Of a DNA stretch of 64,000 nucleotides, positions 3,629-64,000 are shown in pieces (position 1 is the first letter of the stretch; every line of letters begins with the position of its first letter). Below the pieces are notes generated by a model, which was given only the letters and a program-made list of their open reading frames with translations, was not told the origin of the DNA and made no database searches. Source of the DNA: Chrysomallon squamiferum (lineage: Eukaryota > Animalia > Mollusca); NCBI GenBank assembly GCA_012295275.1, contig CM022665.1:23808001-23872000 (forward strand). Reading direction: 5' to 3'. Position numbers and translations under genes: made by a program.

Positions 3629-6600
3629 TCAAATTAACCTAGTATTTTTCAAATACTGAATGAGTGTTTTGTGAATGAACTGATACTGTCCCAAAGTCTG
3701 GACCATGAACATTCGCTGTTGCCGAATTCCAGCAAGAGCTTTGGGTAGATCAACACTCTGAAAAAAACAACCAACAGAAAACTTTTGTAATAACAGATAC
3801 TGGAATTCAGGGGAATTTGGGCCCTTTCCTCCTAATTTGTATTTGTGTCTTGTGACTTTTCAGTGTACCTATGTATTGTGTCTGTTCTTTGCTGCATGCG
3901 ACTGAGAATTATGTGACAGAATTTGTGTATTTGTGTATTATGCTTTATTCTGACATGCTTTTGGTTACTGTGATTTTTCTTTGTGTGCAGATGTGTGCTT
4001 TTTTGTTTGTTTGCTGTGCTTTTATATGTTCGGCTATGGGATATACATTTGAAAGGGTTAAATAATTACATGGTTGTGTTCCAAGCACCACTTCATAACC
4101 ATTGTCAAAATGACAACTCCTGAGCGACCAACACCAGCACTGCAGTGTACAACAACAGGAGCTTTCTTTCCACTTCCTTCCTCACTTTCAGCTAATCTTC
4201 GCACAGATTCTACTTCATCTAGAAAACCTGAATATTTTACAGAAAATCATTAATATTTAAGAAAAGAAAATAAGGACATAATTATAATACATCAAACCTG
4301 TTAATTCTCTTCAAAAATAAAATTCTGAAGAACTATATTTTTTAAATAGAGTACATAGGCAAATGTGTATTAAGAATTAAAAAAAAAAAAAAAAAAAAAA
4401 ATATATATACATATATATACATATTCACATACCAAGAAAGCCATATACATCTTCTGGACATCCATGATCTGGCCAGTCTGTGTACTGGAGATGCCACAGA
4501 ACTCTCTCCTTGTTCATAGGAACATAACGAACAATGATGCGACTTGTAACATAGCATAAGGAATTATCAGTAAATTCCAGGAAAATCTCATACTGCAAAT
4601 AAATATATAAAATACTAATTTTAACACAATGCATATGATAATACCAGATGTTAGGAGTTTCTTCTACGTATTTATTTCTGCTCAAGAAAAATGTTTAATA
4701 ATTATACCCTAAGAAGTGTTTAATTTTCAAGTACTGTTTATTGTTGTCATTAAATAAATTTAAAAGCTAGAGAGATATGGGATATGTAAGAACCCAGTTT
4801 CTTCCTCTTAATTTTCAAAGAAGTGATTAGTTCTTTCATACATTTCTTGGGCAGTTTAGCCTTCTTCAAATTTTTTGTAGTTGTTTTCTTTTTATATCCA
4901 AGAATTTTTTTCAATTTTATTCCTATCAATGTCTTTCATTTCTTTTTCACCTTCTAAAATGAAACCTAACATATCTCCCCAATCTTCACAATAGAAACTT
5001 GGATTATTACATTTTAGTATAACTTTTATTTCATACATTTGATATTGGGCACATCTTGCCCTTGCTTCTAGCTCTTTAATCGTGATAAATAATTCATTTT
5101 TATATACCATCATCTCTTTGAATTCATCGATGATATCATCAACATCACCATCTTCAATAGCTATCATTGGAGGAACCGTTGTTAATTCTCCCTTTTCATG
5201 CATAGGTACTTTATCACAATCTGGAAAATCCCAATAAGTTATTTTTTTTTGTTCATCCGTGTATCTTTTATATGCCTCATCTTCATCTCTACCTCTTTCA
5301 GAATATTCATCATCTTGTTCAATTCTTTCAGATCTACAGCCTTCTGCCCAAAAATGAGTTGGATTTAACCAATCCATTTTTCCATCATTCCAACTCCTAT
5401 TAAGATGAATGTCACTGATGGTTAAATGATGATTCATGTTTTCTTTTGAGCTGAATGCAACAATCTCGGCAATGGGGTATTTCAATATTTCCACAGAAGA
5501 GACAATTGGTTGTTCCTTTAATAATTTGTTGGCTGCTGGATATTTTTTCATTAAGTTCTCTGAAATTTCTTTGAAGAAAATCACAGAACTCTCCTCTGAG
5601 GATATTTTCTTTTTCTGTTTCTCTGGTGTCTTGGGTGGTGAAATTGGTTTGACTTCCTCTAGATATTCTGACAAGTTTTCTTTTTGGTTCATCTTCTCTT
5701 TCTGTCTGAGTTTCTCTTTCACATACAAAGTAACCGGTTTGAGTGTTGGTCCAAGTGTCGATAGTAGAAACTGGCTGTGCATTGCTTCTTGAAGTTTCTT
5801 GATTTTTTTTAATTCTCTCTGGTTCTTTGAAACATGATTCCATACAGTTAGATGATGTAGATTGTTTGTTCCCAAGAATAGAAATGTGTCTTGGTGACTT
5901 TTCAGAAACACTAGGAATAGTGTCAGTGCAGATACCAGTGACAATTGTGTTTCCACTGGATATGGTTGTAGATTGTCCACTAAAATTGTATAATCCACGT
6001 TGACTTCCATTAGATATGCTGTGTCCAGTGGATTTGTTACTGGAGTAACGATTACATGAAGATGTGATAGTTGGGGGCAATCTTCGATGTTTGGCCTCTC
6101 TTGATACGGCACTTGATGTAGAAACAATATCATTTTTCTTGCTACTGCTTTCACTTGCTGTCCTTGATACGACAACATTTGTTGGTCCTGTATATTGATG
6201 AAATTTAACATTACCTCCAGGACTTTTTGTGAGTCTCTCGACAGTAGATCCATGATTTCTTCTTGACATCCCCATTGACTTACTATGTGATAACTCTGTT
6301 CTTCTTCTGTCATCAGTTCCATTGTTGTCTCTACTGATGGAATGGTGGTTACAGTCATACCTGGCATGATTACTATTTTCTTGGGTTGAAAGCAAACTGG
6401 TGAGAATACGTTGCTGCTCACACAGGTATTCTTCTGCAGATCTTGCTTTAGGTTGACTCGGAGATGATAATATTTCTTGTGCATCAGATCTGATAGATTC
6501 ATAGTAATCCTTTTTTCTAGTTCCAAGTTTTCCATTTTGACTAGATGTATCTTCATCAATAATAACTAAATCAGTAAATTCGACTGCCATAAATTCTGGG

Positions 6601-9450
6601 TATTTTTCAATAGTTTAAATTTAATTTAATTTAATTTTATCAGTTTTTATATATTTTGTTAATTATGTAGTTGTATTGCACAATTATTTAAAATTAATAC
6701 TACGTATAAAACCAGGAACTTCCCATACACACCTAACCAATCCTCTTCCTTGTTATATTGCACAACCATTTGTCATAAAATGTTATTTTATATATAAAGA
6801 AATTTTTAGAAATTTTGAATTTATATTATTTATTCAGAATGGCTGTTAAATATTCTTTATATTTGGAGATGAGTTTTATTTTTATTTTTATTTTAAACAT
6901 TTTTACTAATTTATCATTGTTGATTATTTTAATAAAATATAATTTTAAATTTATATGTTAATTATATTTTTAATATTATTTAATAAATTTATTTAATTTT
7001 TATGTTTTAGGAAGAATATTTATCTCCAATTAATATTCTGTCCAATTAATATATCTCCAATAAATATTCTACTGACAAATTTTAATGCTGATATGAATTT
7101 GCTTTAAAACCAAAAGAAAATATAAAATAAATTTTTTCAAAAAGCAGGCATAGAAGGAAGAGTGAATGCCATTGTTAATGGTAATGCTACTCTAACATTC
7201 AAAAGTCGGATGAAGAATGAAATGGTAAAACGTCTTTGTTAGAGAAAGAGAAGCAAAAGATTTCCAACTTTATTGTCCTCCACAAGAAAGATTCAATCAG
7301 TTGATGACACAGTTACACAATCTTCAATATCTTGGAGAAGTTGTAGGGAACTATAATGTTTCTAAAGATGATGTAAGAAAATGGGTAAGACACATTTTAC
7401 CATTACCACTTCAAAAAAGGAAAGGTTTTTCTGATGAATTACCAACTGCAGATCGACGTCTTCTAACAGATAAAGAATTTGATACAATGCAGATGTCAAA
7501 ATCTGACAGATTTGTCTATAAAATGAGACAGCTTATGGATGAAAGTAAAACAACCTCAGAACTGGATTTGAATCGATGGGTTCTGAATCCTTATTATTTT
7601 ATCTTCAATTCCTCCAATACATTTTTACAGTTAAATATTATTCAAATTGATAATGGAATATGCAATGATATTCATACACACTAACTATCTCTTAATAAGA
7701 TAATTCATACTTACATCACCAAAACATTCTTTTCTGCCTGACTCTGAAGGCCAATATGGATAACATTTCTTTTTTCCTTCTTCCTAAAATTATATATATA
7801 TATATATATGTTTTAGAAAATTATATGTATGTATGTATTTATTTTTGTGTGTGTGTTTGTGTATACAATAATAATAATTTAACTATTAGTAACTATATTT
7901 ATTTTGCGGACTGTAATATAAAACAGAATTATATATTTATTATTTAAGATAAGGAACAACATAAAATTTTTAATATATTACAATAGTGAGAAATTTACAT
8001 TACCATTTACTAGAGTGTAAAGAATAAAATTATTAATATAACTGACACACACACACACACACACACACATAATGCAATTTATTTACTTTGTGAATATATT
8101 ACTGTACACTCGTTTAATCAGGTTTATTTTATTATTATTAATATAATTATTTTCTGCTTCACAATTCTAAATACTTTAACAATGTCAGTGGAAATGTGTT
8201 TTTTGATGTGTTTCTGAGGATGGATGGACAAAGTTGTTACTATTATTATTATAGATGGTTGCATGCATTAACTGAATAAAGAAACAGTCATATCTCAGTT
8301 TAATTAATGTAATTAATGAACTGTTGGACATCTGGTAATAAAAGCGATAAACTTAATTCTCTTTATTATTAACACAAGTTGCAATATGTTGTCTAACCTG
8401 GAAAGCTGTCAGCATGGCAATCACATCTACTTCTTGTTCCCAAACCATCTGCCAGAAATCAACAACAGTATTTTCCAAAGGAGCCTGAGTGGCAATAAAC
8501 CACCATTCATTGTTTTCTGCAGACAGCTAAAGAGACAGAAAAATATTGTAGAAATTAGAGTGCAATTATGTGGCCACTAATTAGTAAGAGCATGATATGA
8601 ATGAAAAAATCAAAATAATTGCCGTCTCACTAAAATTTACCAACAACCACTGAAAATTAATCCCATATCTGTTTACAACTTTATTTAAAGATTTAAAAAA
8701 AATAAAAAAATTAATGAATTATCTGATTCAAAAGCAGTTATTATTTAATCCACACAAAGACAGATTATAATGTACCTTAACATGGGATGCATTGATGTAG
8801 CCAGTTGGGTTGTCTTTCTTTGGTGTTAACTTCACTCTACTGTTGTCATAAGGCAATATGTCTTTGAAACGGTTTCTTGATTCATTGGCTTGCATCTTAG
8901 CAACAGTGCATTCCAGATTAGGAGCACGTTTTGGAACTTCTTCGAACTCCACAAACACCTGACCTTCAGATATTTTGCTTTCTAGAATTTTTCTCTGAAA
9001 TTAGAAGTTAACATCAAACATATAAAACATAATGAACAGTGTTTGTAACTTAACTTTCTCTTAAACAGTTACTGTCATTTGCTACAAATCAATAAATGTC
9101 TTAGGTCAAAAATAATATTCTTAGAATCCATAAGTAAACTTATGGCCACAGAAACCACTTTTGCTTTTTTAATGGAACTACTTTTGAAAATAAGTTATTT
9201 ACTCTTTCATCTTTTGGAGCTCTGCTTTCATCATTCATCAGAGCCAGAACCATTGGTCTAGACAAAGAAAGTCCATTCATAGCAGCCATCTTCAGTGGAC
9301 CTATGTTCCGACGAACTGTTGCATCCTGCAATATAAAATATAAAACTGCTAGCAAAGTCACTTCTACAAAATCAGTAAGCATCAATTTAGAAAATGTCAA
9401 ATAATGTTATTAAATATTTATTGGAAGTTCTACCAAAACAAACAAACAAA

Positions 9451-22095: not shown

Positions 22096-22815
22096 CAGTG
22101 GTACCTTGACTTATGGGTTTAATTCATTCCATGGCTGAGCTCACAACTCAATTTGCTCATATATCAAATCAATTTTCTCAAATGAAATTAAATGAAATAC
22201 CATTAATCTGCTCCAGCCCCCCAAAAATCACCCCAATTTTTTTAACATGTTTTTAAATAAGAAAAATCTTTAAAATGTATGTAGAAATGACAAATAAAAG
22301 ATAATGTAATGAAATAACTTGGTTTTGTAAAATGTACAGGGTTAGGGTTTCTCCATCTTTTCATGGACAGAGGTCCGTACCTTAGAAACTATTTTAATGC
22401 CTTTGGCTGGAGATATAACCTTTATCGACTCCTTCTGCTTCAGTATCATACATATTGCAAAAATATTACACTTGTACTGCCTAGCCATGTTGACTACATG
22501 CACACCTCACTCATGTTTTTGTATTATTTCATGCTTTAATTCAATGGACATCATATACTTCTTCTTCTCAGCACAGTCTTTTGCACTCACTTTCTTAGAA
22601 TCCATGGATATTTTGCAAAACACAACAGAGATGCTTCCATGGCCAGGTAACCATGTGAAGCAAACAAGTGAGACATGCCATGCTGGGCGGATGTTATGGT
22701 GTTCATTGCGCCAACTAGCGGCAGCATATCTGAAGCTTGTTTATAACTTGGATTTTGGCTCGCAACTCCAACAAAAAATCGATGGGGTGACTGCTAGTAA
22801 CTCGAGGTACTACTG
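22096..22815 (-). mobile_element. Internally deleted Tigger/pogo-type (Tc1/mariner superfamily) DNA transposon
   Basis: Left TIR CAGTGGTACCTTGACTTA vs reverse complement of the right end CAGTAGTACCTCGAGTTA (15/18 identical). TA precedes the left end; CA follows the right end (mutated TA target duplication). Minus strand 22605 to about 22345 reads MDSKKVSAKDCAEKKKYMMSIELKHEIIQKHE*GVHVVNMARQYKCNIFAICMILKQKESIKVISPAKGIKIVSKVRTSVHEKMEK, a TIGD1-like HTH N-terminus with an internal stop and no DDE domain. Confidence 0.85.
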
Positions 22816-25293
22816 CATTTGATTTTTCTTTCTTTCGTTCTTAAAAAAAAAAGAAAAAAGAAGGCAAAAACCTGAAACAAAAAATAACCCACAATGCTGA
22901 ATCTGAGTTAAATTTTTGTGTGACCTACTGGTATTATGCCTCTGAGCTAAGACTCATTCTAAAACATCCAGCACTTTCAACATAAAGACTATAAATGAGA
23001 CACAAATGATGTTATCTTTAGAACAGCATTATACTATAGGCTACATCAGTTTTCCTGAATTTTTGGTTCCTAAACCTTTCAGTGTTGTCATTTTTTTCTT
23101 GGCTAGGAGTAACATAATAATTTAATAAATAATACTTCTCACTCTGAGCAGCTAAATGTGCATCTCCTGTTTAGAGCATCATGCACTACTACTAATTAAA
23201 AAATATTAAATATAAATTAAATGATTTTAAATGCCTGGTGCTAATTTTATCCAGTTTAAAAGAGGTTCCAAAACCACCTGTATCTGAATAATCAATTGTA
23301 ATGTTGTACAAATCACATTTCTGTTGGAGAGGCAAGCCATAGATATACACTGTCAATGTGAAAGTATGAAACATAATTCGTTTCCTGTTTCAATCATGTT
23401 CACTGCACCCTTGGATTACTGAACATTCCGCTGGTTGAGTTTATCACAGAATGAGTTTATCACAGTTTATTTGCTTTTTTTGTCATTGTTAATTAATAAG
23501 AACAGTACATGGAGTGTAATCCGTTATCGACAGAACAAAAATCACTTGACACTTAATAACGATTAAGATACGCTGACATCTTGTTAATGAAAATAAATGC
23601 TCCAATGAATTTTAAAATTTTACAACATATACCCAAATGTACATGGATAATGTATTCAAGTTATTAAATAATGATTTTCATTTGAAACAGTTGTATAAAT
23701 TACATAACATTTTTCAGATACTTATGATTCTAAAACATGACAGCATTAGCTAAAACCAAGAGTATAAATTGTTGTAATTTAAAACAAAGCTGAACAAAGC
23801 ACTGTAGAACAAAATATTGACCACAATACATAAAGAAAGAAAACTATTTTATAATAGCCTGATTGGTTTTTATTCTCCTTAATAAGTTTAATAATAAAAG
23901 CAGAAATTTAATCAATTTTAATATACACAACAGTTTATGGTGCTATTTGAAATATAAATGAAATTTATCATTAAATATATACATACATATAAAATTTTAA
24001 CACATCACTGAAACAGATCATGAAATTTCAAAGAAAATATATTTATAGTTCAGAATAAATAAATGAGTGTACATAATTTTCTACATCCAGACTATGAAAA
24101 AGAAATTAATGGTGACAAAGACAGAGGCATGTTACGTTATATTAAAACAAATTATATTAAATATTTAATTTTTAAAGTCCAATCAGTGATTTTTTTCTGA
24201 ATAAATTACTGTAGTGCTGTGTTAATTAATATTTTAATGATCACTGATAAGCTGATTACAAAATCTAAAGAACAAAAAGAGAAAGAAGAAAGTATAAAAG
24301 ATAACTAATAAATGGCCAAAAAATAAAATCATGTAATTGCTAACAACTTTAAATAATCATATAAAATTTTAATATACCCTATCTTTCAAAGTCCATAATT
24401 AATTTAAATTTTGAATATATATATATATATGAAAATTAATTCACAGACAAAAAAATATATTATAACTTATTTTTATATCGAAATTGGTTTCTTCATAAAT
24501 GGTTCTGTAGCAGTGATTAATGTATTGTCTTAGAATGTGAAGGCCTCAGGACAAATTATACAGTGGACTATTTCTTTTTTTTCCAAATTGTAATGTCATA
24601 TATATTTCATTGCATATCGCCATATGTATCAGAATCAGCTGCAGAATTATTAGATGATCTAAAAACAATGTGCATAAAGACAAATTTAGTTTTATTAAGA
24701 TTATATTGATAAATGTAAAATACTCAATATTATGAAACAATTTAAATACTTTCAAATTTGTATCTCAATCAAATGAAACTTTAAAATGATTTAACTGATC
24801 TTGGAACCTGTGGAATAAAAGCTAAATGTGTACACCGTATAAGTAGTACTACTGGTTAACTATGACAAGCATAATATTGATTAAATTTAAAGCTTCTAAA
24901 CGTGTGTACATTCTTAAATTAAATACATTTTATGTGGATGACACTGTCATAAACTGATAAACAATACATATATTTTCTTAAGTCAGTTGATTGTAATACT
25001 GAAAACATTTATTAATACAAAATTGACATTAAAGTTTTTTGTGTTATTTTTTTTGTTTTTTGCACCTCTTTTTTTTTAAATTAACTGGTATTTACACTAT
25101 TAAATCTATTTTAGTCATTGCGATACACACACCCATTAAAAAAAAAAAAATTCATAGAATGATAGACAAAAAAATAAATGAAAAAAAAAAAAGAAAGAAA
25201 AAAAAAGCCCCTTAAATTAAAATCAAAAATAAATTACATTATTTAAATGAGCTTCCTAATGTATTTCGCTAAAACATATTTTAATAAACTTAC

Positions 25294-34200: not shown

Positions 34201-37200
34201 ATTTCTGCTTTGCTTCACAGATATGTGGTAAGTTGTTCCAATATGTTTTAAGAAATCATTGGTCAGGCATTATGTATTTTGTCAAATATAAGTGAAGAAA
34301 TAAATAGGAATTCAAATCATTCTGTGTAACTGCTTTGGCTGTATTATTTTTAAGGAGCATGTTCATGTGATTATTTACCATATGGTTTATTTTATGCAGA
34401 GAAAAAGACCAGTGTAACAAGTTTTTATTCTGAATATGTATATAATATTAATTAATACTGCAATTAATTAACATTTTAATTTTTAAGAATTTCTTTTTGC
34501 TTTTTTTTAAAATGAAAAGTGCAATAGTCTCATCAGTGGAATCATTAAAAGTGCAGATAACAGAAAAAGAAGAACAGTTAGAGAAAACAACCTCAGAGCT
34601 AGAATCTTTAAAGGAGTCAATGAAGCATAAGGACAAACACCTTGCTGGTAAAATAAAAATTTGAAATACACTAGTGATAAAACTTTTAAAAAATTGAAAG
34701 AAGTGAAAAATATTTAGAATATTTAAACAGAAACAGATTATATTAGCAAATAGAGTAGTCTAATAGACTGAAAAGTAAAATGTTTGAAAAGTTTGTTTGA
34801 ATATTTTAGATTGCAAATTCTTGGCATGTCTGTTTCTTATAAGATTAATAAAACAGTATTATCGGAATATTGGTGGTTCAGTATCATTAATGTTACTTAT
34901 TTATTTTGTTTTCAGACAGCAAAGAAACTTGGCTGGAAACTACTAAAAAACAGCAGAACATTCTAAATGAAAAAACCCAAGTTATTATTGATCTTGAAAA
35001 GAAACTGAATGATCAACAAACAGAAATGGACAAGTTACAGTGTGAGTACAACATTTCACTTAATCAGATTGAGGAAATGAAACATCTCCAACAGACAAAA
35101 AGCAGTGAAATTGAAAATATGAAAGAGAGAATTATTTCTCAAGACATCAACCTCTCAGAATTTGCTGAAAATTTAAGTCAAAAAGATTCCAGATTGTTAG
35201 ATATTGAAGCTCAGAATTCTAGTTTGCACAGCCAGACTGTTGCACTGAAAGATAAAGTAGAAACACTTCAGCAAGATTTTCAGAAGAAGGTTGCTGAATT
35301 AGATGAGACACAAAAATCCTTGGATACAGTTCATTCATCAACAGGTAAACAGTTGTCTCAGCTTCAGACAGAGCATACTAATTTGATAGAAAAATTAAAT
35401 CAAGCTGAAGTTGCTTTACAAGATAAGACTCATCTCTGTGAATCCCTTGAAAATGAATTGTCTAATCTTAAAAAAGAAGCTGCTGAGATTAATGCCCAAC
35501 TGTTAGACAGAGAAGAAGGTTTGAAAGAAAAGCAGAGACAGACTGAAGAAGAAAAGGAAAAATGTGACAGTGCTTTGAAACAAATGACTGATGAAAAGAC
35601 TGTGCTTCTTCAGCAAATATCAGATTTGAAAAATACCAACTCACAAATGCAGTCAAAGTTAGACACAATTCAGATGGATTTGGAAGATTATACAGAAACT
35701 TCACAAGGACTAACTGAGCAACTGCATCAAGCTGAACAGAACATCCAAAAGTTGAATGACTCCTTGGCTGAAAAACAGAATCATTTAGATGAAATGCAGC
35801 AAAATCTTGATCAGGCATCTAGAAGAATTAAAGAATATGAAGATTTGATCCAAGAATTGACCCAACAAAAGCATCATGTCAGTGAAGTGCTGGAACAACA
35901 GAAATCTCTTATAGAAAAAAGTAATAGGCAGATAAATCAGGAACATGATAGATACCAAGAAATATTAAAAGAATGTCAGATGTTGAAAGAGAATCTTCAA
36001 GCTGCACTAGATAATAATGCTGAACTCATGAAAAAAATAGAACTGTATGAAAGTTGTATAGCAGATAAGGATAACACTATTGAAAAACTACAGATTCTGT
36101 TGACAGAAAAAACAGAAATGATCAGTAATTTTGAGGCAAAATGTTGTAATCTCACTGAAGAATTAGAAAAAATACAAAAAACCCTTGAGCAAAACCAACA
36201 ATCAAATGAAAAACAAACAGAACTGAACTCACACTTGAGTGAAAAAAATGCTTCTCTAGAGACTGCATATTCATCATTGGTAGCTGCCTCCACCAAAGAC
36301 ATTGAAAATCTAAATGTCAGATTAATTTACAAGCAAGAGGTTTTTGATAGAAAACAAGAAGAATCCAGACAAAAGCATAAACAGCTTGAAGAAGATAAAT
36401 TTGCTTTGCAGAAACAAATTAAAAAGCTACAAGAAGAACTTTCAGTGTCTCAGACTTCTTTTTTCGAAATACAAAATGAAATGAAGCTGTTGCAGAAAGA
36501 AATGGAAGCTGCTGATAGCAATATTAGGTCAAGAGAAGAAAATCTACATCTTAAACTGACACAGGCAGAAAACGAAAACATGGATTTGAAACACAGTCAA
36601 CAGGATACTGAACAGAAAACCATAGCTCTCATACAAGAATTGAACAATCAGAAGGCAACCACTGAAGAAGCTCAGTTGAAGATCACCAATATGCAAGAAG
36701 AACATGACAAGAAATGTGCTCAGTTGGAAATGCAGTGTGAAGAACTGACAGAAAATCTCAGGAAAATGGAAGCTTTAACTGAAAATCTAAAACAAAGTTT
36801 ATCTGCAAAGGAAAATAGAATAGCTGAATTGGAACAGAATGCACAAGAAGAAACACATGTTCAGAATTATTTGAAAACACAACTGGATGACAACACTAAG
36901 TGGTATAATCAAGAAAAATCCAAATTACAAGAAAGAATAATTGCTCTTGAAGCCCACTTACAAAATAGTGAAGAAAAAAGACAGCAACTTGAAGTAGATA
37001 TTACTAACCAGCTTATGGCTAAAGACAATGAATATCAAGATAAGATAACATCTTTGATAAAGGAAAATTCTTCTGCAACTCTGTTAGTGACCAGAAAGGA
37101 TGAAGAAATAGAACATCTGAAACAACAATTGATGGCAAAAGAACAAGAAATTAATTTACAACTAGAAATAAGTGTTGCAGAATACAATTTAGTAGAAAGT

Positions 37201-40200
37201 GAATTAACTGTACTGAAAGAAAAACATCAGTCATTGTTGGATGCATATGACATGAAGACCCAGGAGACAGAACTTGAAAAACGATATCTGCAACAAAAGC
37301 TTGATGAACTGAATTTAATGAAAGATGAAGTGGAAGAAGAAAATTTGTGTTTGTCTGAGAAACTGACAACTAACAAAGTAGATATTGAGGTCAAACAAAA
37401 TCTGATCAATTCTTATGAACTGGAATTAAGTAATCTGAGAATCGCCCAACAGAAACTTGAAAGTGATGCTGAAGAAGTGCAAAAAACTAAGCAGGCTGAA
37501 ATTGAAGAATTAACTGTTAAGTGTGAAAAGCTGGAAATAGAACTGGAAAAAAATAAAAGTGAGATGGTATGTTTTGCATCTAAAATTGATTTGAAGGATT
37601 CTGATCTGACTGCTAGAGAGTCTGAAATGGAATGTCTTGTTCAAGAAATTGCTTGCTTGAAACAACAACTTGCAGATACTGACCTTGAGTTTTGTAAGAG
37701 CAGAGAAGAAAATGACCAACTGAAGAAACAAATTGAAGAAATGAAAAATGAAGCCAGGGATATTTCTTTATCAAACCAATCTCTGCAGACAAGGCTAGCA
37801 GAGCTGGAAACAGAACGTGAAAGTATGTTAACATCATCAGCCAATGAAGATGAAAAATTTAGAGAACTGAATTTTGCTTTTACAGCAAAGGTTGAAGAAG
37901 CTAAATCAGTAACCTTGGAAGTAGAAAACCTGAAACTCAAGCTGACAAATGTTGAAAATGCTCATAAACAATTACAAGAAGAACATGAACACTGTTTACA
38001 AGAACACGAAATAGAGGCACTTTTATCATTAGATGAAAAAGAACATTTGAAAGATCAGTTACTGGAATCAGATACTGATTTAAAAAAGATGTCTTTGGAA
38101 TATGAAGAACTTAAAAGTGGTAGAATTAATCTTGAAGAGCAAATTACTTCAATTACCAAAGAAAAAGAAATGGTGACAATAAAACTGGAAGAAGCTTTAT
38201 GTGCTGTAACCGACATGGCAAACAAAATGAACTGTTTACAAAATGAGAGTGAACATTTAAGCAATGTGGAAAGGATAAAAAATGAGTTTCAAACTATGCT
38301 AGAAAATTCTGTCAAAAACCATGAAAATGATTTAATGCTGGCACAAGATACACAGATGTCCCTGAAGCAGCAATTGTCTGAAATGGAAAAGCAGCTGAAA
38401 ATGAAAGATGAAGAATTAAAAAACCTGCAAAATAATGTTGCATCCTTGGAGCAAGAAATTGCCAGGTACATTTTGGAAAATGAGCAGCTGACATCTGATC
38501 TTCAGCAAAAAGATGAAAACTTCCAACAGGTGAAGATATCATGTGAGAAACTTTCAGCATCTGTAAAAAACAGTGATGATGAAATTGCTGTATTGAAAAC
38601 TAAGGAACAGGCTTTAGAGGAAGAGAAATCAGACACAGTAGTCAAGTTAGAAATGGTTGAAGCAGCCAGACTGGAAGCAGAAGCAAATTTAAGAGTGTAT
38701 GAATCAGAAATTTCCTGTTTGAAACAAGAATGCCAGCTTAACTACCAACAACTCCAAGATGCTAAGAGAGCTTCAGATGAATTATTTAAACAGGTGAAAG
38801 AGTCAGAATCAGAAACAGAATTGTTAAAAGCTGAAATTCAAGAAAAGAACACTGAACTACATAATAAGAATATTGAACTGAGTGTCCTTTCATATGAGCA
38901 AACAGAGTCAAATAATAGACTTAAAGAGATTAATACAAATCTAACATTGTCTTTAGAACAACAAGAAAAGAAAGTAGCTGAATTAAATGAGCAACTAGAA
39001 AAAGTAAATGAACTGCTAACAAACAAAAATGAGAAAATTGATAATATGAAAGAAGAACAAAGGGGCATGCAAAGTGTTCTAGAAGAAAAAAATAGGCATA
39101 TTATTCATGTTGAAAAAATACTTGAAAACTATAAAGTGGAAAAGGAGAATCTGAAGACTGAAATTGAAAAGGTGACTGAAGATGTACAAACTAAAAGAGA
39201 AAATATTGAAAAGCTTGAAAGCACCATTCAAAATTTCCAGTTGGACCATTCTGTTCTGGAAGAACAAATCCAAGTACTGAAAAGCACACTGACCTCCAGT
39301 GATCATGAAATAACGGAAGTGAAAGATACTTGTTTGTATCTGAAAAAAACTATTGAAAATCAAGACGATCTTTACAAAAAAGATTGCAGAAAACTGAAAG
39401 AAGTCAAAAACATGCTTGAAACATTGAAGGCAGAGAAGCAGGATCAGGATCAGAAATTAGAGAAGGCATCTCAAAATGAAACAAAGTTAAGTGAACAGAA
39501 TAAAATGCTTAATTCAAAGAACACTGCTCTGGAAAAGGATTTGACAGCAGAAAAATCAACAGTGAAGAAATTAAGAGAACAGCTAGCAGCTCTGCAGACA
39601 AAAGTGGTAACTCTGCGAACAGAAAACAGTCAGAATAAAGATAAATGGAAAATACAAGAAAATGAAAAAAAACAACTGCTCAGCCAATTCTTGACATTAG
39701 AAGATCAGAAGGCAAACCTGGAGAAAACCAATCATTCTCTTACTAAAGAAATTGAAGGCTTGAAAACCGAACTTGCAAAAAATGTTGTAAATGTAGAGAA
39801 GATCCAGAAACAATTTGCTGAAGCAGAGAGAAAGTGTGAAATGACCGAGAATGAAAAAATAAAAGCAGAAAGCCAGAGCAAAAAGCTTCTTGAAGAAGTC
39901 ACAGGCTTGAAAAACCAGATAATGGAAATGGAAACAGAAATCAGTACCTTAAAAAACCATTGTAAAGAACTGGAAATAAAACTGAAAAAAGTGTTGGAAG
40001 AGAAACTTGTGAAGTCTGAAGTAAAAACAAGAGAAGTTCAGCCATCAGTCAGTTCAAAAGCTAATGTGTTGGGAAAAGATCTTGTCAAGTCTGAAGTAAA
40101 AACAAGAGGAGTTCAGCCAACAGTCAGTTCAAAATCTAATGTGTTGGAAAAAGATCTTGTCAAGTCTGAAATGAAAACAAGAAATGTTCAGCCATCAGTC

Positions 40201-42336
40201 AGTTTAAAAGCTAATGTGTTGGGAAAAGATCTTGACAAGTCTGAAGTAAAAACAAGAGGAGCTCAGCCAACAGTTGGTTCTAAATCTAATGTGTTGGAAC
40301 ATAATCCTGTTGAGTCTGCACAGACTTCAAAATCTAACGTAAGAAGATCAGCAACAGAGTCATTAAAGGTATGTCAGTTATTTTAAATAATTCAAAATAT
40401 TTTGTATGAGATCAGGAACAATACATGTCTGTCCACTACACAGTAATCACAGGGGTGTTCAGTTCTGATCCATATTTAGTGAGTTTGTGCTATAAATAAA
40501 TCCCTTGCTTAATAATGAAACTGCATGCAAATAAGGTTATGGAAGTAAAATGTTTTGTATATGTGCACTGGAAATACAACTGTCTGTTGAAAAATTACGT
40601 AATATTTTGATCAAAAGCTAAGTTAACATATATAAATTAAAAGAAGATTCTGGATAAAGATATAATAATGGGAGGAAACGTACACAATCTTATTAAATGA
40701 TATTGTTAATAAGAAAAACAAACATAAAATATTGTTTTTATAAAAAATGTATATGTTACAGTAATTGTTATTTATTTTTTAAATACAGGCTAACAAACTG
40801 AAAGAACAAACCCAGTCTATGAAAAGAAAACTCTCAGAACAACCTTCACAACTAAAGAGAAGTGGTATGTTTTTAATGTGTTTTAATCTGAATTTAAATA
40901 TAACAGCAAAAAACAATTTCTTTTCTTTTTCAGGAATATTTGTTGAAGTAATAAAAGCTTTAAGAGAAAGGCCTCTTTATATAAAAATTTAAGTTTTGTT
41001 TGGGTTTTTTTGTGGCAGAGGATAACCTTTTTGGAAGGTTTTTATTATTATTATTATTTTTTTTTTTTTTTTTTTTTTTCATTAATATTTGGAAGGTGTG
41101 AAATCTTGTTATCTTTAAGCATTCTGCAGGTACCTTGAGAACAACATACTAATAATTTGTCTTGCCATCATAATCATAACTGCTGCAGATAGATTTGAAT
41201 ATGGATGGTTGAATATAACCTCAAGAGATCATTCATATTAACGTTATAATGTTTCAGCTTTGATTTCCTGTGCTTCTTAGAGTTGTTGATGGGTATTTTA
41301 TTTTGTTAAATCTGTGTCAAACAGATACTTAACTAACACAATATGTTTTAGCTTGATTAATATTATTTTTCTAGATTTAATAATGTCTTTGAATTCACTG
41401 TGACAGTAAGATTAAATGAAATCTATGCTATAGAACTATTTTGGATGGCTTGGTATTATGTGCTTAGCATTTAACACATTTCATTTAAATCTACAAATAA
41501 CTATTGATCAGAAACAAACTTTGCAGTTTGTGCCTTCCAAAAAGACTAAAGTAGAAAACTGCAGGTAACACAAGTAAATGTATCTGTTTCAGATGGAACT
41601 AAGACAAAGATAGAATTCTTTGAAAGACAAGCTGAAACAAATAAAAAGCGTAGAGCTGCATACATACAGTCAGTAGTTAGTGATACAACCATCAAGGGTT
41701 TGTACTGTGTTAGTTTTGTTCAAATGTCAGTTATTCTGCACTTAATGAAAAAAATACATTACCACAAAGGAGGAAAATGTTGAGAACTGCACTCATTATA
41801 ACATCTTTGCTTATTTCACAATTTGTTTATTTTTGTATTATGGTACTAACATGTTAGTATTGTATTGGTGCTTGCTGGCCAAATCTAAGAACTTTTATAA
41901 AATCTTTTTAACTTACTAATCTTCTAACCCTTTTATATAATAGTTTTGACAACAGCAATTTCTGTTGTTGAACAATGATTAACTGCTTTTGGTTTTAGTT
42001 GCCACATAATAATAATAATTTAAAAAAAAAAAAAAAAAATTATATAAATTCTTTTAAAAGTCAGTGTATTTGATATTTTATAAATATTGTTATTATATTC
42101 CAGGCACAGACAGAAGTCCAAAGAAAACAACACTAGGAATTGGGAAAGGATTTTGTCAAGACATTTCCAACAGCCCTAAAAAGAAATTTCCTAAAACTGA
42201 CAAGGTTAAAAAAGCTGCAACACCACAAAGGTGTCTCAGTTTAAACAAATCACCTGAACTCAAACACCAGAAACGACCAGTGTCAAAACCAGACAAACCA
42301 ACAGAAGATGTTGAACAGGAATGCAATGTGCAATAG
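28260..42336 (+). CDS. CENPF: Centromere protein F-like coiled-coil protein; 14 coding exons, about 2650 aa
   Basis: Exons: 28260-28397, 28786-28998, 29339-29579, 30086-30195, 30537-30735, 32177-32379, 32579-32791, 33193-33667, 33978-34143, 34520-34647, 34916-40368, 40789-40864, 41593-41697, 42104-42336. Phases are consistent; the sum is 7953 nt. N-terminus MSWVADEWKDGLPARALQRIEQIE...QFQLDSLEQALQNQK matches the CENP-F N-terminal motif; long coiled coil; C-terminal CAAX box CNVQ*. Confidence 0.9.
40006..40305 (+). repeat. Coding tandem repeat, 4 x 75 nt (25 aa), in the CENPF giant exon
   Basis: Units start at 40006, 40081, 40156 and 40231, each like LVKSEVKTREVQPSVSSKANVLGKD. Confidence 0.92.
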
Positions 42337-44659: not shown

Positions 44660-45606
44660 TTACTTCAGATTCCTCATCAATCCAATACTATAGTCAAAGA
44701 GTTCAGTATTGTGAAATGTTCCGTTCTTATCAAGAAGGAAGAAAAGATGTTTTCCTTTCACCTTCATTGGAATATAAGCTCCTGGACCTTCCCGAGCCTG
44801 AAGACAACTTATATTTTCCAAAGCTGTCTGCACCTTACCTCCTCTTCCAAACCATGTTTGAGTTTCTATTTGTACTTCCCGACCTCCTTGTAACAACCAC
44901 AAGTTGCGTACTGATCTCAGTGGATATATTATTGTGATAATGAGAAAACCAGTTCCTGGAAACAGGAGAAAAGGTAATTTAAGTAAATTGAAAACAAAAT
45001 TTGTTTAAAAATGTTACATTCTTTATTACACATTAAACAATTTTTAACTCTCATCAAAAATAATTTAAATGAGTTCAAGACTAATATTTTATATATCTTT
45101 ATGATTGTGACTCACAAGCTAAATTAAGTTTTATTCATATATACGTTTATGTTTACAAATGTAGCTTAACTAGACTTAATACTCAAAGGATGTATAAAAT
45201 TACCAAGAACGAAACACAAAAATGAAACTCCATTTTTGTATTTTCCTTCAGCTGCATTAGTTAACTTCTGTGCAAACCAAGATAAATTGCTTCCATCATC
45301 TAACTGACCAATTCGTTTCTGCTGTTCCTCTACTGGTTCATCTCTAAGATGGTAAGCTGTTATTGCTAGATAGGTTAAACAGGACCACTGGACAACACCA
45401 CAAATTGTAAGCATTCTATAAAAGGAATCGCTCGTATAGTTCGAGTATACATGAACATCTTGTTTAACACGTGGATCAACTTCAAACGGGCGGGTTGATT
45501 TTGCTCTTGTCGTTCTTAAAAACAATATCTTCTGTTTCGCGAGATTTTGACTTGTTATGTACGTTTGTCTACAGACTTGTCTGATTAAAGGCAGCAATCC
45601 GATCAT
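44660..45606 (-). CDS. TMEM223: Transmembrane protein 223 (mitochondrial); 2 exons, about 232 aa
   Basis: Exons 45606-45204 and 44955-44660 (phase 1). Arg-rich N-terminal presequence-like region, two hydrophobic segments, and C-terminus PMKVKGKHLFFLLDKNGTFHNTELFDYSIGLMRNLK typical of TMEM223. Confidence 0.88.
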
Positions 45607-46272
45607 GATGGATATTGTCAGTTGACACTGAGTTAATGAGAAACAGTAAATTACAATTCCTTTTTAATCATCTTTTCTTTTTTCAAGCTCAGGATATTTT
45701 CATCAATTATTTAAATACCAATTCAATTCAGTTTACTGCTTGCTCTTGAATATAATCTGACATTAAAACGTGCTTTCCGTAAAAATCCAAGGTCTCGAGT
45801 CACATGTCAAAAAAATAACTGAATGTTCCTTATATTAATTAATAGTCAGTAAGAATCAAATAATAAAGTGACATTGATGTTCTCTGTATTTATAAAGTAT
45901 TGTTAAACTGAAATAAACTTGCACTCAGCATCTATATTCTAATCGCCATATAAAATCGAAATCTGTCGAAATATTCCGAAGAATTACGAATGTGGCAAAA
46001 GGAAGAAAGGGAACAATAATTGTTCAGAAAAGATTTGTAAAAAATAACAACAAAACGATGGTTCTGTTCTATAATTATATCATAGTATGAAAAAAATAAT
46101 AGATTTATGTAATTTGTTTTATGACATTAATATTTTTGTGACTAGATATATTCTATAACTGAATAAACAATTACATTACAATAGTTACTCCCGTTACATA
46201 TTTCCTTTTCTTGTTTACCTTAGAAGCTGAAGGCTTTCAATTTTATATCGATAGTAGCATACTTATTACAGA

Positions 46273-57700: not shown

Positions 57701-60285
57701 CTTCAAGGTAGCGCTTTCTACTGTAATAGTTGGAGATGTATTTCCTTACATAGTAGCCACGCCACATCTTTTGGATCTGTTTTAGAAACAACTTAATATA
57801 TAATCTGAATAAAACATACTAAAGATTCTTTGTCAGCATAATTCATATTAATCTAAAATTATAAATAAAAACACTTACAAATGGCCAAATACACAAAACT
57901 GTTTTTTTTCTTAAATGCTATTGTTTAAACCTTTTAAATGTTGATTTCATAGTAAAATGAATGTGAAATCATAACAAATTTTAAAAAATTTCCTTGCCTT
58001 CTCTTCTTAGGAATAAAATGAAATATTAATGAAAATGTGATCAGAATCAGTGATATCAGTGCACTACCTACAAATGATTGACAATTAAAGAAAAACATCA
58101 TTTGAAGAAATAAACATATTTACTCTTGAGGCCATTTCGTTGTAGTTGTTTAGCTTCATAATAAAAACACTGTTCTGAAAAAAGGAAATAAGACAAATAG
58201 AAATGATTCAACACAATGTTATTACTGGTAAATGGAAATACTTTATAAACTGACAAAACAGAGATTCTCAAAAAATATGATAAGCAAAACTGGATCATAT
58301 TAACAATCTGGTTTTCACATATTAAAGTAACAAGATAAATAACTGCATAATTGTACATGTTGGTGTGCGCCTGAGAAGTAATAGATGGAAGGATCAATTC
58401 TTCAACTGGTTTTTCACAGGATGTAGCATTTTCTTACCCACTTAATGATGCAGTGTGTATAAAAGATCCCTTCTTCTAATCAAGGGCTGACAGGGCTGGA
58501 TTTAGATACTGTGAGACCCATTTTGGTAAATGCTACTATCAGATAAATTTAACACATGGAATGAAATTACTGAAGGCTTCTTCAGATTGACAGGCCTGAA
58601 GCTGCTGTTTGTCAATAAGGATATTACTAAATAAATAAATGTGACCAATAATTTAAATTCTGAATTTATTAAATGTTTACTGTTGATGTTAATGAATCTT
58701 AACTACCTTGACCAGTATTCTGAAATAGCGTCTCCCCAGAAAACCTCGCCAGGCTTTCTGAACATTTGTGGCACATCTGTTTAGGAATCTGAAAGAAAAC
58801 AAACCACTCACTGACAATGAATATAAAAAATAAAGGTTTATGTAAGAAAAACATCTATATATTACATTTAAGTAAGATTTAAAACTGATTATAAATAAAT
58901 TAAACAGTAGAAATGCTTTTATATAAAAAATTGTTTGGTGAATTGTTAAATAGTTTATAATTATGTGTTTGTGGTTGTTTTTTTTTATAAAATAAATGTT
59001 TTAATTGTAGTAAATATAATAATACAGTTGTAAAAAAGCTATATCTCTGTGATTAAACTGCAGCTGAATACTTATCAATTCAATTTCAGTTTAATATGAT
59101 CAAATGGTTTATTATTATTTTCTTTCTTTCTTTGTTTTATGGCATTCTAAACTTTTTTTTTTTTTTTTTTTGCTCTTTTCACCACTGAACTTTTAAGCAG
59201 AAATTGCTTGTTGGTCAGTGAATTACTGTCAGTTCATAATAAATGGTTGAAATATAAACAAACAAATAAGTAAATGAAAAATACTTGAATTATCTTCTAA
59301 TTACATTTCAGATGAAAAATGTAGACAAATAGTTAAATATGTTATCTTATTACTGATATGATATACTAGTGTTTTATTAGAGTTCTATTTAAAAAGTTAT
59401 ACTTCAAATAACATCTGCATCTTGTACCACGAAACCAAGCCTGAATTCGTCTTGCTGCTAAGAACTCCAGATTCCTCTGTTCTTCAGCTTCACTGATTGA
59501 AAATAAATAAATAAACAAATAATGAAAAATTATTTATCTGTCACACAACAAACATCTGAAATTTACTGGCAGAATATACCTTGACACATGAAAAATACTA
59601 GTTTATGTGTGAGTTTATTTAATTCAAAATTAAAAAATTAAATATAAATAATATGTAATGAGGTTATTCTATCTTGTACATATGTAGAACTTGAAACTGC
59701 ATATTATATGAGATGTTTTAAAATTCTATTGTAATGGATCTTTAGTGTACTTCTGTTTATGATCTGAAGAATAAAAAATTAACATTTCAGTTTCATTGTA
59801 TCATGGTCCAAAAGTCTCAAAATAGAAATACATGAATGATCATTGATTGGAATAATTTTCACTGGAAAGCCTCTTTATCTGGGAGACTCCAGATATTCTG
59901 TTTTCCTTTCAATATAAATTGTTAGGCATCAAGTTTGGGACTGTCAATTTTGAAATTCTGAATAGACATTAGTGCTGAAAGGGTCATATTTAAGGTTATT
60001 TCGATTTCATAATTACAAGCTGAATGTTAAGAAATGAATGAAGCTTTTTAATGGACAAATAAATAATATGTATAGAGGATTAACTGATGAAGATGTTTTG
60101 ACAGCATTCACTACCTGTAAATCGTTCAGTTAATAAACATGTACAAATACGAAAATTATATATAACAGAACAAAATATAACACAAAAAGTATATTCTATG
60201 AATAAAAAATACTTTACTTTTTCAGATCATAGGTGATTTCCACTATCTCGCCAACTTGTTTCAACAATCGAACCATAGCCGCCAT
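54787..60285 (-). CDS. SPATA17: Spermatogenesis-associated protein 17 (IQ-motif protein); 10 exons, about 352 aa
   Basis: Exons: 60285-60218, 59492-59403, 58788-58707, 58174-58124, 57776-57673, 57311-57156, 56658-56505, 55906-55758, 55465-55336, 54861-54787 (sum 1059 nt). Three IQ motifs (IQAWFRG, VQKAWRG, IQKMWRGYYVRK), plus HYLIST..IPGIYNSPF and KPQGPFR..EV..QRYKP. Confidence 0.88.
57057..57090. repeat. (TATG)n microsatellite
   Basis: Direct reading. Confidence 0.9.
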
Positions 60286-62884: not shown

Positions 62885-64000
62885 TAAATAAATAAAAAAT
62901 CGAGAGAAAAAGTATGTGTGTGTAAAAAGTGTAAGTACAAAAAAAAAAAAAAAAAAAAACACCCCCAAAACCCCCATTAAATGTATTTATTTTCCATAGT
63001 GCCTAGAAAGTATGCATATATATATAATTATTTTTGTTATTGTTATTATTTTTCTTTAATATTACAGGCCAGACAGCTTTCGTGTCATTAGCATGGATGC
63101 TGAGGAATATCACCCCAAATATCCGGACTGTGAGGTGAAACCAGTATATGAAAAGGACACATTACCAACCAGAAAACTACTTCCAGATATTCCAGTTCGA
63201 CAAACAAGAAGCCTGACAAAATCAATTTCTGACTTCAGAGCACATAATCCACAGCCAAAAAGTTGTAGTTTCATCTGTCATGATGTTAGGTTGTTAAATG
63301 AACCAATCTGTACAGTGGCTACATGGGACACACAACAGGATCAGGCAAATTGGTGGCCAAGTGGAATGCCAAGGGAACCACTGCCACAGCCACCACACAC
63401 GTTAGATTCTACATACAGAAAAGATTTTCTTTACCGAGAATCCAGTGTACCATCTGGATCAACACGACATCTTTCCAATCCTAACAAAGTGCCAGCTTTG
63501 GGTACAGGTCAGAAGTTTATCATTGTTTATTTTATTATGTTAATGTATCACTACATATCATAAATTAATATTCTTTTCACTTTATTTTATTTTATTTATT
63601 TATTTATTTTTTTGAAAATTTGTCTTTTAAAAATAATAAATATTTCTGCCTTTTGCAAAGAAAAATGTTCACAGAAAAATTAGCCTCTCGTCAAAAGACT
63701 GAATTTTACACTAATCACGTATGTTTCAGAAATTGTTTAATTCAACTTATTGATAAAAAGATGTCAGAATTAAAACTTTAAAATTTTTATCTTGTGAATG
63801 ACATATTAAAGTTATGAAATGATGGAATTTGAATAATTTTTAAAACTTACTGATAATTATAATATAATCATTATTTATATATTTATTTTATTTTCTTTTA
63901 TTATTTTTTTCTTTTCTCAGTTCCAGTTAATCATTTGAGACAAAAAGATGGAAAGCAACGTTTCTTCAAAGAGGATATATCTTATCAGCACATATACAAC
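60472..64000 (+). CDS. C2orf73: C2orf73 (CIMIP6)-like ciliary microtubule inner protein, 3' part outside the window
   Basis: Exons 60472-60527, 63068-63507 and 63921 to the window end, with consistent phases: MAIYMPPLARKKKVPEKYQ-PDSFRVISMDAEEY...FICHDVRLLNEPIC...NWWP...DSTYRKDF...G-VPVN...EDISYQHIYN. This resembles C2orf73-family motifs; the identity is recalled, not searched. Confidence 0.65.
60969..61011. repeat. (TA)n microsatellite
   Basis: Direct reading. Confidence 0.9.
62834..62878. repeat. (AAT)n microsatellite
   Basis: Direct reading; it explains the poly-Y and poly-L spurious ORFs. Confidence 0.9.

Follow-up and report, generated by a model that had tools for sequence, protein, structure and literature searches.

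The intron of a PTPN14/21 (Pez)-like phosphatase gene in the mollusc Chrysomallon squamiferum is filled almost throughout by a foreign-looking insert, in which two reading frames of the same strand overlap for 1,145 nt, far beyond chance. On balance we favour its being a piece of a compact DNA virus, or of a virus-like element, that has yet to be described, with leaky scanning as the likely way in which both frames were read. The origin is probably viral, judged by analogy of layout rather than by homology. The insert appears to have entered the genome fairly recently and to be drifting now without selection, not used by the animal. All coordinates refer to the window, the whole 64,000-nt stretch of DNA that was analysed, and strands are given as plus or minus.

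THE HOST INTRON AND ITS INSERT

The host intron (4593..7714, minus; 3,122 nt, GT..AG) separates the exon encoding CYPYWP (7715..7785, minus) from the exon encoding the WPD loop (4431..4592, minus; E 6e-18 to PTPN14 and 1.5e-15 to PTPN21). The initial annotation had placed it there from the sequence, and RNA confirms it, with the splice joint from 4592 to 7715 exact in both RNA runs examined (X8 and X9). The insert occupies nearly the whole intron; neighbouring introns measure about 0.2 and 0.6 kb. The host tolerates it because its own splice sites remove the insert whole, a clean case of 3 kb tolerated inside a phosphatase catalytic-domain gene.

Chromosomal integration is evident from these spliced host exons and from a contig of run X2 (4411-6704, 3 differences) that joins the host exon to both reading frames, so that the left junction is genuine. 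An assembly chimera, which the initial annotation had named among the outcomes that would refute its reading, is thus answered on the left; the right junction has no bridging contig among those listed. No joint skipping the insert, the sign of an empty site, appears in the four same-species DNA or unlabelled runs examined. In organism B the host exon aligns with 22 differences in 165 nt and the intron is only partly seen: towards the intron, 679 nt of the contig fail to align at 80%, and among the records listed the reading frames are without cover at 80% likeness.

TWO OVERPRINTED READING FRAMES

ORF A (5412..6590, minus; 392 aa) runs from 6590 to 5412 and ORF B (4892..6556, minus; 554 aa) runs in the +1 frame from 6556 to 4892, both on the strand of the host gene, the first ATG of B lying 34 nt downstream of that of A. 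Neither frame has an internal stop within the dual-coding overlap (5412..6556, minus; 1,145 nt), whereas the third frame has 40. The original claim, of two same-strand frames overlapping for about 1.15 kb without stops and unlikely by chance, holds in both its parts. When the codons of A are shuffled (20,000 times; mean 10.3 stops) or A is recoded synonymously (3,000 times; mean 15.1 stops), the B frame never stays open; in the reverse test the A frame is open in none of 20,000 codon shuffles of B (mean 22.3 stops) and none of 3,000 synonymous recodings (mean 16.2 stops). Given A's own codons, an open B frame has P = 1.4e-7, and when the overlap is split in thirds every third is separately open beyond chance (P 0.002-0.03). 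As a control, the second frames of the window's two long host exons are open for at most 52 and at most 91 codons. Since the double frame is so far beyond chance, both frames were held open by selection at some time.

The oddity is the double frame only. Long uninterrupted reading frames are ordinary here, with host exons of 5.5 and 1.6 kb, and the contrast once drawn between unspliced long ORFs and spliced host genes therefore falls away. Codon usage hints, weakly, that A may be the older frame (r 0.73 versus 0.58). A run of eight A residues in the overlap (5803-5810, minus) is a possible slippage or frameshift site between both frames.

PREDICTED PROTEINS

Protein A is basic and Ser/Thr-rich with few hydrophobic residues, a composition from which we infer disorder. 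The first ATG of ORF A has a weak context (T at -3). Three [ST]QT motifs (aa 283-315; 5646..5744, minus) are candidate LC8 dynein-light-chain sites that fit the LC8-binding motif as described (PMC3078936, PMC12057147); their clustering is matched in 0.0004 of 20,000 shuffles, for a motif chosen after seeing the sequence. At the end of ORF A a CxxC-x7-CxxCC pattern (aa 363-378; 5457..5504, minus) is a predicted zinc site and may bind zinc.

The likely start codon of ORF B is Met8, whose context is strong (position 6535; A at -3 and G at +4), giving 547 aa. The first half of protein B is hydrophobic, the middle charged and the tail ordinary and coding-like: the 172 codons of the tail have a GC pattern of 0.44/0.30/0.20, as in an ordinary gene. 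The closing codons of ORF B include an AATAAA (4916..4921, minus), a candidate poly(A) signal. A candidate HUH motif, HLHV, stands at residues 165-168 of B; such a motif occurs in 0.019 of shuffles. A 19-residue hydrophobic stretch (aa 200-218; 5903-5959, minus; mean hydropathy 1.64) is a borderline membrane anchor. The 61-codon Lys-rich frame over the end of ORF B (4750-4935, minus), with no codon-position signal and no Pfam match, is probably noise.

SPACER, OPPOSITE-STRAND REMNANT AND INSERT ENDS

ORF A and an opposite coding region stand head-to-head around an AT-rich spacer (6591..7125), a candidate two-way promoter. Three tandem 15-16-nt repeats (7021..7070, plus) each contain CCAAT, and sites that we take to be kB-like (6715-6724) and C/EBP-like (6675 and 6757) were chosen after the fact. 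Matches to the CRESS-type nonanucleotide number 32 in the window; the one at 6702, TAGTATTA, does not sit at the apex of a predicted hairpin. Ahead of ORF A, in its RNA-covered leader, are also a second ATG at 6726 (minus) and a 36-codon upstream ORF with a hydrophobic stretch (6661-6769, minus).

Across the spacer, pointing away from A and B, lies a coding-like remnant (7126..7684, plus) of 38 codons in one frame and then 151 in another. Two stops stand directly upstream of it, the frame changes once, and the remnant reaches to within 30 nt of the host donor site; it looks more damaged than A and B. Its GC1-GC3 of 0.21 is reached in 0.0001 of 20,000 shuffles, and a frame as long occurs in 1 of 1,000 shuffles. 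A Pfam match of the remnant to DUF507 (E 0.004) is below the cut-off of that family and was rejected.

Neither terminal repeats nor a target-site duplication were found at the insert ends, whose longest shared repeat is 8 nt, so the ends are undefined. Likewise, the insert, present only as a fragment of ∼3 kb, yielded no terminal hairpins, no jelly-roll capsid gene and no other replication or capsid hallmark, although a mere fragment would not be expected to carry all of these.

SEARCHES FOR RELATIVES

Pfam has no family for A or B at E<=1 and NCBIfam no significant match; in both, PolB, integrase, ATPase, protease, capsid and transposase families were absent. No relative of A or B was found among PDB sequences. 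No significant match came from word searches of 5.8 billion proteins (with B, A and the B tail, over limited length ranges), from HMMER over 1.84 billion representative proteins or the ESM Atlas (B only in each), from JGI metagenomes, GTDB and phages, or from Rfam; nor from IMG/VR, where one stretch passed tblastn without a locus. The best PHROGs hit, phrog_3819 (unknown function), reached E 0.0014 on the charged stretch of B and is not significant, and two JGI loci, L024 (inspected) and L025 (the same match), are 8-residue chance matches. Single-sequence folds were unusable (pLDDT 34 for the second half of B, 38 for the plus-strand remnant). Foldseek, which the initial annotation had proposed, returned noise from these folds. 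A match to a cellular gene, retrocopy or transposon protein, which would have refuted its reading, was not found in the databases searched, and homology to a known virus, as expected of an endogenous viral element, was not found either (IMG/VR, HMMER over 1.84 billion, Foldseek). The literature searched listed no description of this element.

A G-x4-GK P-loop is absent from A and B. We built profiles from 18 of 23 densovirus-motif loci and 23 of 25 CRESS-motif loci, dropping large contigs and loci without a long frame, and on these densovirus and CRESS profiles B scores within shuffled controls. On the SF3 profiles B's score is reached by 21, 28 and 101 of 300 shuffles, although power across families is low, a true densovirus SF3 scoring only ∼3 bits on the CRESS profile; on the N-terminal (HUH) profiles it is reached by 48 and 62 of 300. 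The B tail had been considered, by eye, as a degenerate SF3 helicase; our profiles gave this no support.

SAMPLES, TRANSCRIPTION AND A SECOND COPY

Of the 11 runs listed, 9 carry the insert; these 9 represent seven samples, all of the same organism and spread over three studies (six samples if the one that is possibly the window's source is set aside). In five samples, DNA or unlabelled, 0.86-0.96 of the words of 4700-7650 are present. RNA run X8 has two contigs that cover 4880..6772, and run X9 gives scattered pieces over the insert, including 7246-7418. The word share of X8 is 0.47, with 0.51 expected if 4880-6772 alone were present and 0.87 if the whole were. This hints at a separate transcript over 4880-6772, against which stands the X9 piece at 7246-7418; the alternatives are drop-out of AT-rich sequence, pre-mRNA, or DNA carried over into the library. 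Runs X4 and X5 have almost no contig cover of the locus despite high word shares, so holes in cover prove nothing.

The species also has a second, diverged copy at another place, seen as collinear blocks in both runs examined at 80% (X5 and X3). Its longest block (5436..5522; 87 nt, with 11 differences in X5 and 13 in X3) spans the cysteine cluster of ORF A, and two short blocks are common to it as well (6186..6213 and 6378..6406). If unconstrained, the 87-nt block has a chance of 0.002 where the copies are 70% alike overall and of 0.07 where they are 75% alike. In X5 (record 26; record 19 in X3) a single contig of 4,674 nt carries the copy, and none of the joints listed leads to the phosphatase exons; in X3 the copy has a nonsense change in the A frame (depth 4.5, may be error). 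Separate insertions of related elements fit the second copy better than a lone host oddity does, and the earlier claim of an integrated virus or virus-like element gains from a copy that fits a mobile or viral lineage. This copy and the plus-strand remnant across the AT-rich spacer are new in this analysis.

ALLELES AND PRESENT SELECTION

Samples differ from the window by 0.1-0.7%. In ORF B 3 of 13 distinct substitutions are synonymous (0.23 expected) and in ORF A 2 of 8 (0.24 expected), although 13 variants carry little statistical power. ORF B has a nonsense allele at codon 538 in X3 and a 1-nt loss at codon 503 in X8, each in one contig (depth 7.75 and 5.6) and both within its last 52 codons, while ORF A at this locus has no lesion among three other haplotypes. 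Zero stops among the 8 changes in the overlap is the chance expectation (0.093 per change). Without selection the frames would stay open with P about 0.5 at 0.5% change and 0.001 at 5%; with divergence between samples so low, the open frames require no selection and a young drifting insert is enough. The initial annotation had left a choice between recent insertion and domestication. Neutral synonymous shares and the two B-tail lesions favour the young insert; domestication is not favoured, and as far as the data go the insert is probably not domesticated. At 5923 and 5987 all four variant combinations occur among the window, X2, X3 and X8, by recombination between alleles or as mosaic contigs.

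COMPARISON WITH KNOWN SYSTEMS

The insert resembles the overprinted cassettes that small DNA viruses carry, yet by replication hallmarks it does not qualify for the Parvoviridae, Polyomaviridae or CRESS-DNA viruses. As in densovirus and hamaparvovirus NS1/NS2, a same-strand overlap of ∼0.8-1.4 kb has staggered starts with the second ORF in +1; the overlaps of 16 densovirus loci span 789-1,368 nt, so that 1,145 nt falls inside, and that of brevidensovirus NS1/NS2 is given as 1,122 nt (PMC3744397). Endogenous copies of such viruses, for example the IHHNV EVEs of crustaceans, are likewise integrated in animal genomes, but those described are mostly SF3-bearing NS1 pieces, unlike the insert here (PMC12287923). 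The layout also differs. In 16 of 18 densovirus NS loci NS1 is the longer frame, begins first and encloses NS2. In the insert it is the shorter ORF that begins first, and the overlap is terminal, B running 520 nt beyond A; in addition, the partner gene is head-to-head and there is no NS1 or NS2 profile match. The NS1/NS2 model of the initial annotation fails on this layout, on the missing P-loop and on profile scores within shuffles, and its polyomavirus LT/ALTO model on the missing P-loop, with no Pfam family and no PDB relative.

Compared with polyomavirus LT, the insert has no J domain, origin-binding domain or SF3 helicase by Pfam. Its opposite-strand genes diverge from a non-coding region as in the polyomavirus early region, a layout common to many unrelated elements. 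A +1-overprinted leucine-rich frame is shared with LT/ALTO and with Abscondo/Arnao of the ‘adabscovirus’ as described (PMC11071296), and in that description Abscondo too is without HUH and P-loop motifs (PMC11071296). This replicase-less element is the nearest precedent in spirit, by description (PMC11071296), although the insert has no adomavirus-type virion genes and Abscondo/Arnao were compared by description only. Against CRESS-DNA viruses, we find no Rep (HUH + SF3) match and no nonanucleotide at a hairpin apex. Polintons and adintoviruses likewise insert into animal genomes, with orphan genes among their accessory set (PMC11071296), but this fragment shows neither their hallmark genes nor terminal inverted repeats, and compared with a standard transposon or retroelement it shows no transposase, reverse transcriptase, terminal repeats or target-site duplication. 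Viral overlapping proteins are described as enriched in disorder, with leaky scanning a listed expression route (PMC8227390, PMC3744397); compared with viral overprinted genes generally, neither frame here has an assignable ancestor.

ORIGIN OF THE INSERT

Under our preferred reading the donor would be a compact nuclear DNA virus, or an element resembling one, whose AT-rich spacer acted as a two-way promoter. One spacer-derived mRNA would give both proteins by leaky scanning: going by start-codon context, some ribosomes would start at the weak ATG of A and the rest would reach the strong ATG of B 55 nt further. Protein A would be a disordered phosphoprotein scaffold, predicted to bind LC8 through its three TQT-type motifs and to carry a C-terminal zinc site; protein B would go back to an ordinary gene that was lengthened at its front until it overlay A; and a third gene would have been transcribed the opposite way from the same spacer. 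This viral-type reading is supported by head-to-head coding around a short AT-rich spacer, by the AATAAA inside B's last codons and by an overlap length within the densovirus range. What the initial annotation had called a fragment of an undescribed virus stands as a genuine foreign-looking insert; its viral origin is argued from layout, with no relative in the databases searched.

Four rival explanations were weighed. The insert might be an accessory-gene piece of a larger known element (a Polinton or adintovirus, another midsize DNA virus or a DNA transposon) with its hallmarks outside the fragment. Such elements carry many unrecognisable accessory genes according to PMC11071296, a second diverged copy exists, and with only about 3 kb present the absent hallmarks weigh little; even so, we hold this origin to be unlikely, given no PolB, integrase, ATPase, protease, capsid or transposase family match and no terminal repeats. 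An overprint of 1.1 kb is also more typical of small genomes, which counts against such a piece. Rather more doubtful is a nested host gene, either domesticated or particular to the lineage, in which selection maintains ORF A and perhaps ORF B as well. It would account for an insert present in all seven same-species samples listed (samples found by carrying it), for RNA-run contigs over both ORFs and for an A frame without lesion in three other haplotypes while the plus-strand remnant is broken, since selection on A and B could also explain the greater damage there; but the synonymous shares sit at the neutral expectation, B has lesions in two samples, the absence of stops among the overlap changes is expected by chance, and the second copy in X3 has its possible nonsense change in A.

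The make-up of A, Ser/Thr-rich with TQT motifs and a Cys-rich end, resembles that of viral phosphoproteins, and the A8 run could permit slippage, as would suit a DNA copy of an RNA-virus phosphoprotein gene of P/C/V type (disordered, overprinted, with a cysteine-rich end). We consider this very unlikely because of the head-to-head partner gene, a coding remnant on the other strand across a promoter-like spacer; RNA-virus genomes are not known to have such head-to-head coding on opposite strands, and there is no Pfam match and no poly(A) tail after B. A chance double frame or an assembly artefact is largely refuted and extremely improbable: Ser/Thr-rich frames do have fewer +1 stops, and the right junction is without a bridge among the contigs listed, but the P of 1.4e-7 was obtained with A's composition kept, the left junction is bridged in X2, and five DNA or unlabelled samples carry most of the words of the insert.

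Tentatively, the viral reading extends further, to the fossil of a family of small nuclear DNA viruses that infect invertebrates and have gone unrecognised, of which two related viruses entered the germ line of the same host separately, one of them recently; we regard this as possible, though the odds are somewhat against it. If true, the main cassette of the family overprints two orphan proteins over 1.1 kb without known replication hallmarks, and the viral lineage may still circulate. Virus discovery leans on few hallmark proteins, and the insert would be a handle on a lineage that such searches miss; double open frames offer a means of finding such elements. With the second copy the question can be tested straight away, through a two-version profile, a fold and dN/dS per frame. 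Were the insert an accessory piece of a Polinton-type element, its significance would drop to modest.

OTHER FEATURES OF THE WINDOW

A long host exon (34891-40386, plus) is a single 5.5-kb open frame of 1,831 aa with coiled coil, a weak CENP-F leucine-zipper match (E 0.004, below cut-off) and, near its end, a 75-nt tandem repeat of 4.1 copies (39991-40297). Pfam matches on other host exons are to Solute_trans_a (22346-22822; below cut-off), the TMEM70 family (45166-45663), the IQ motif (58689-59000) and CMIP6 (63060-63563).
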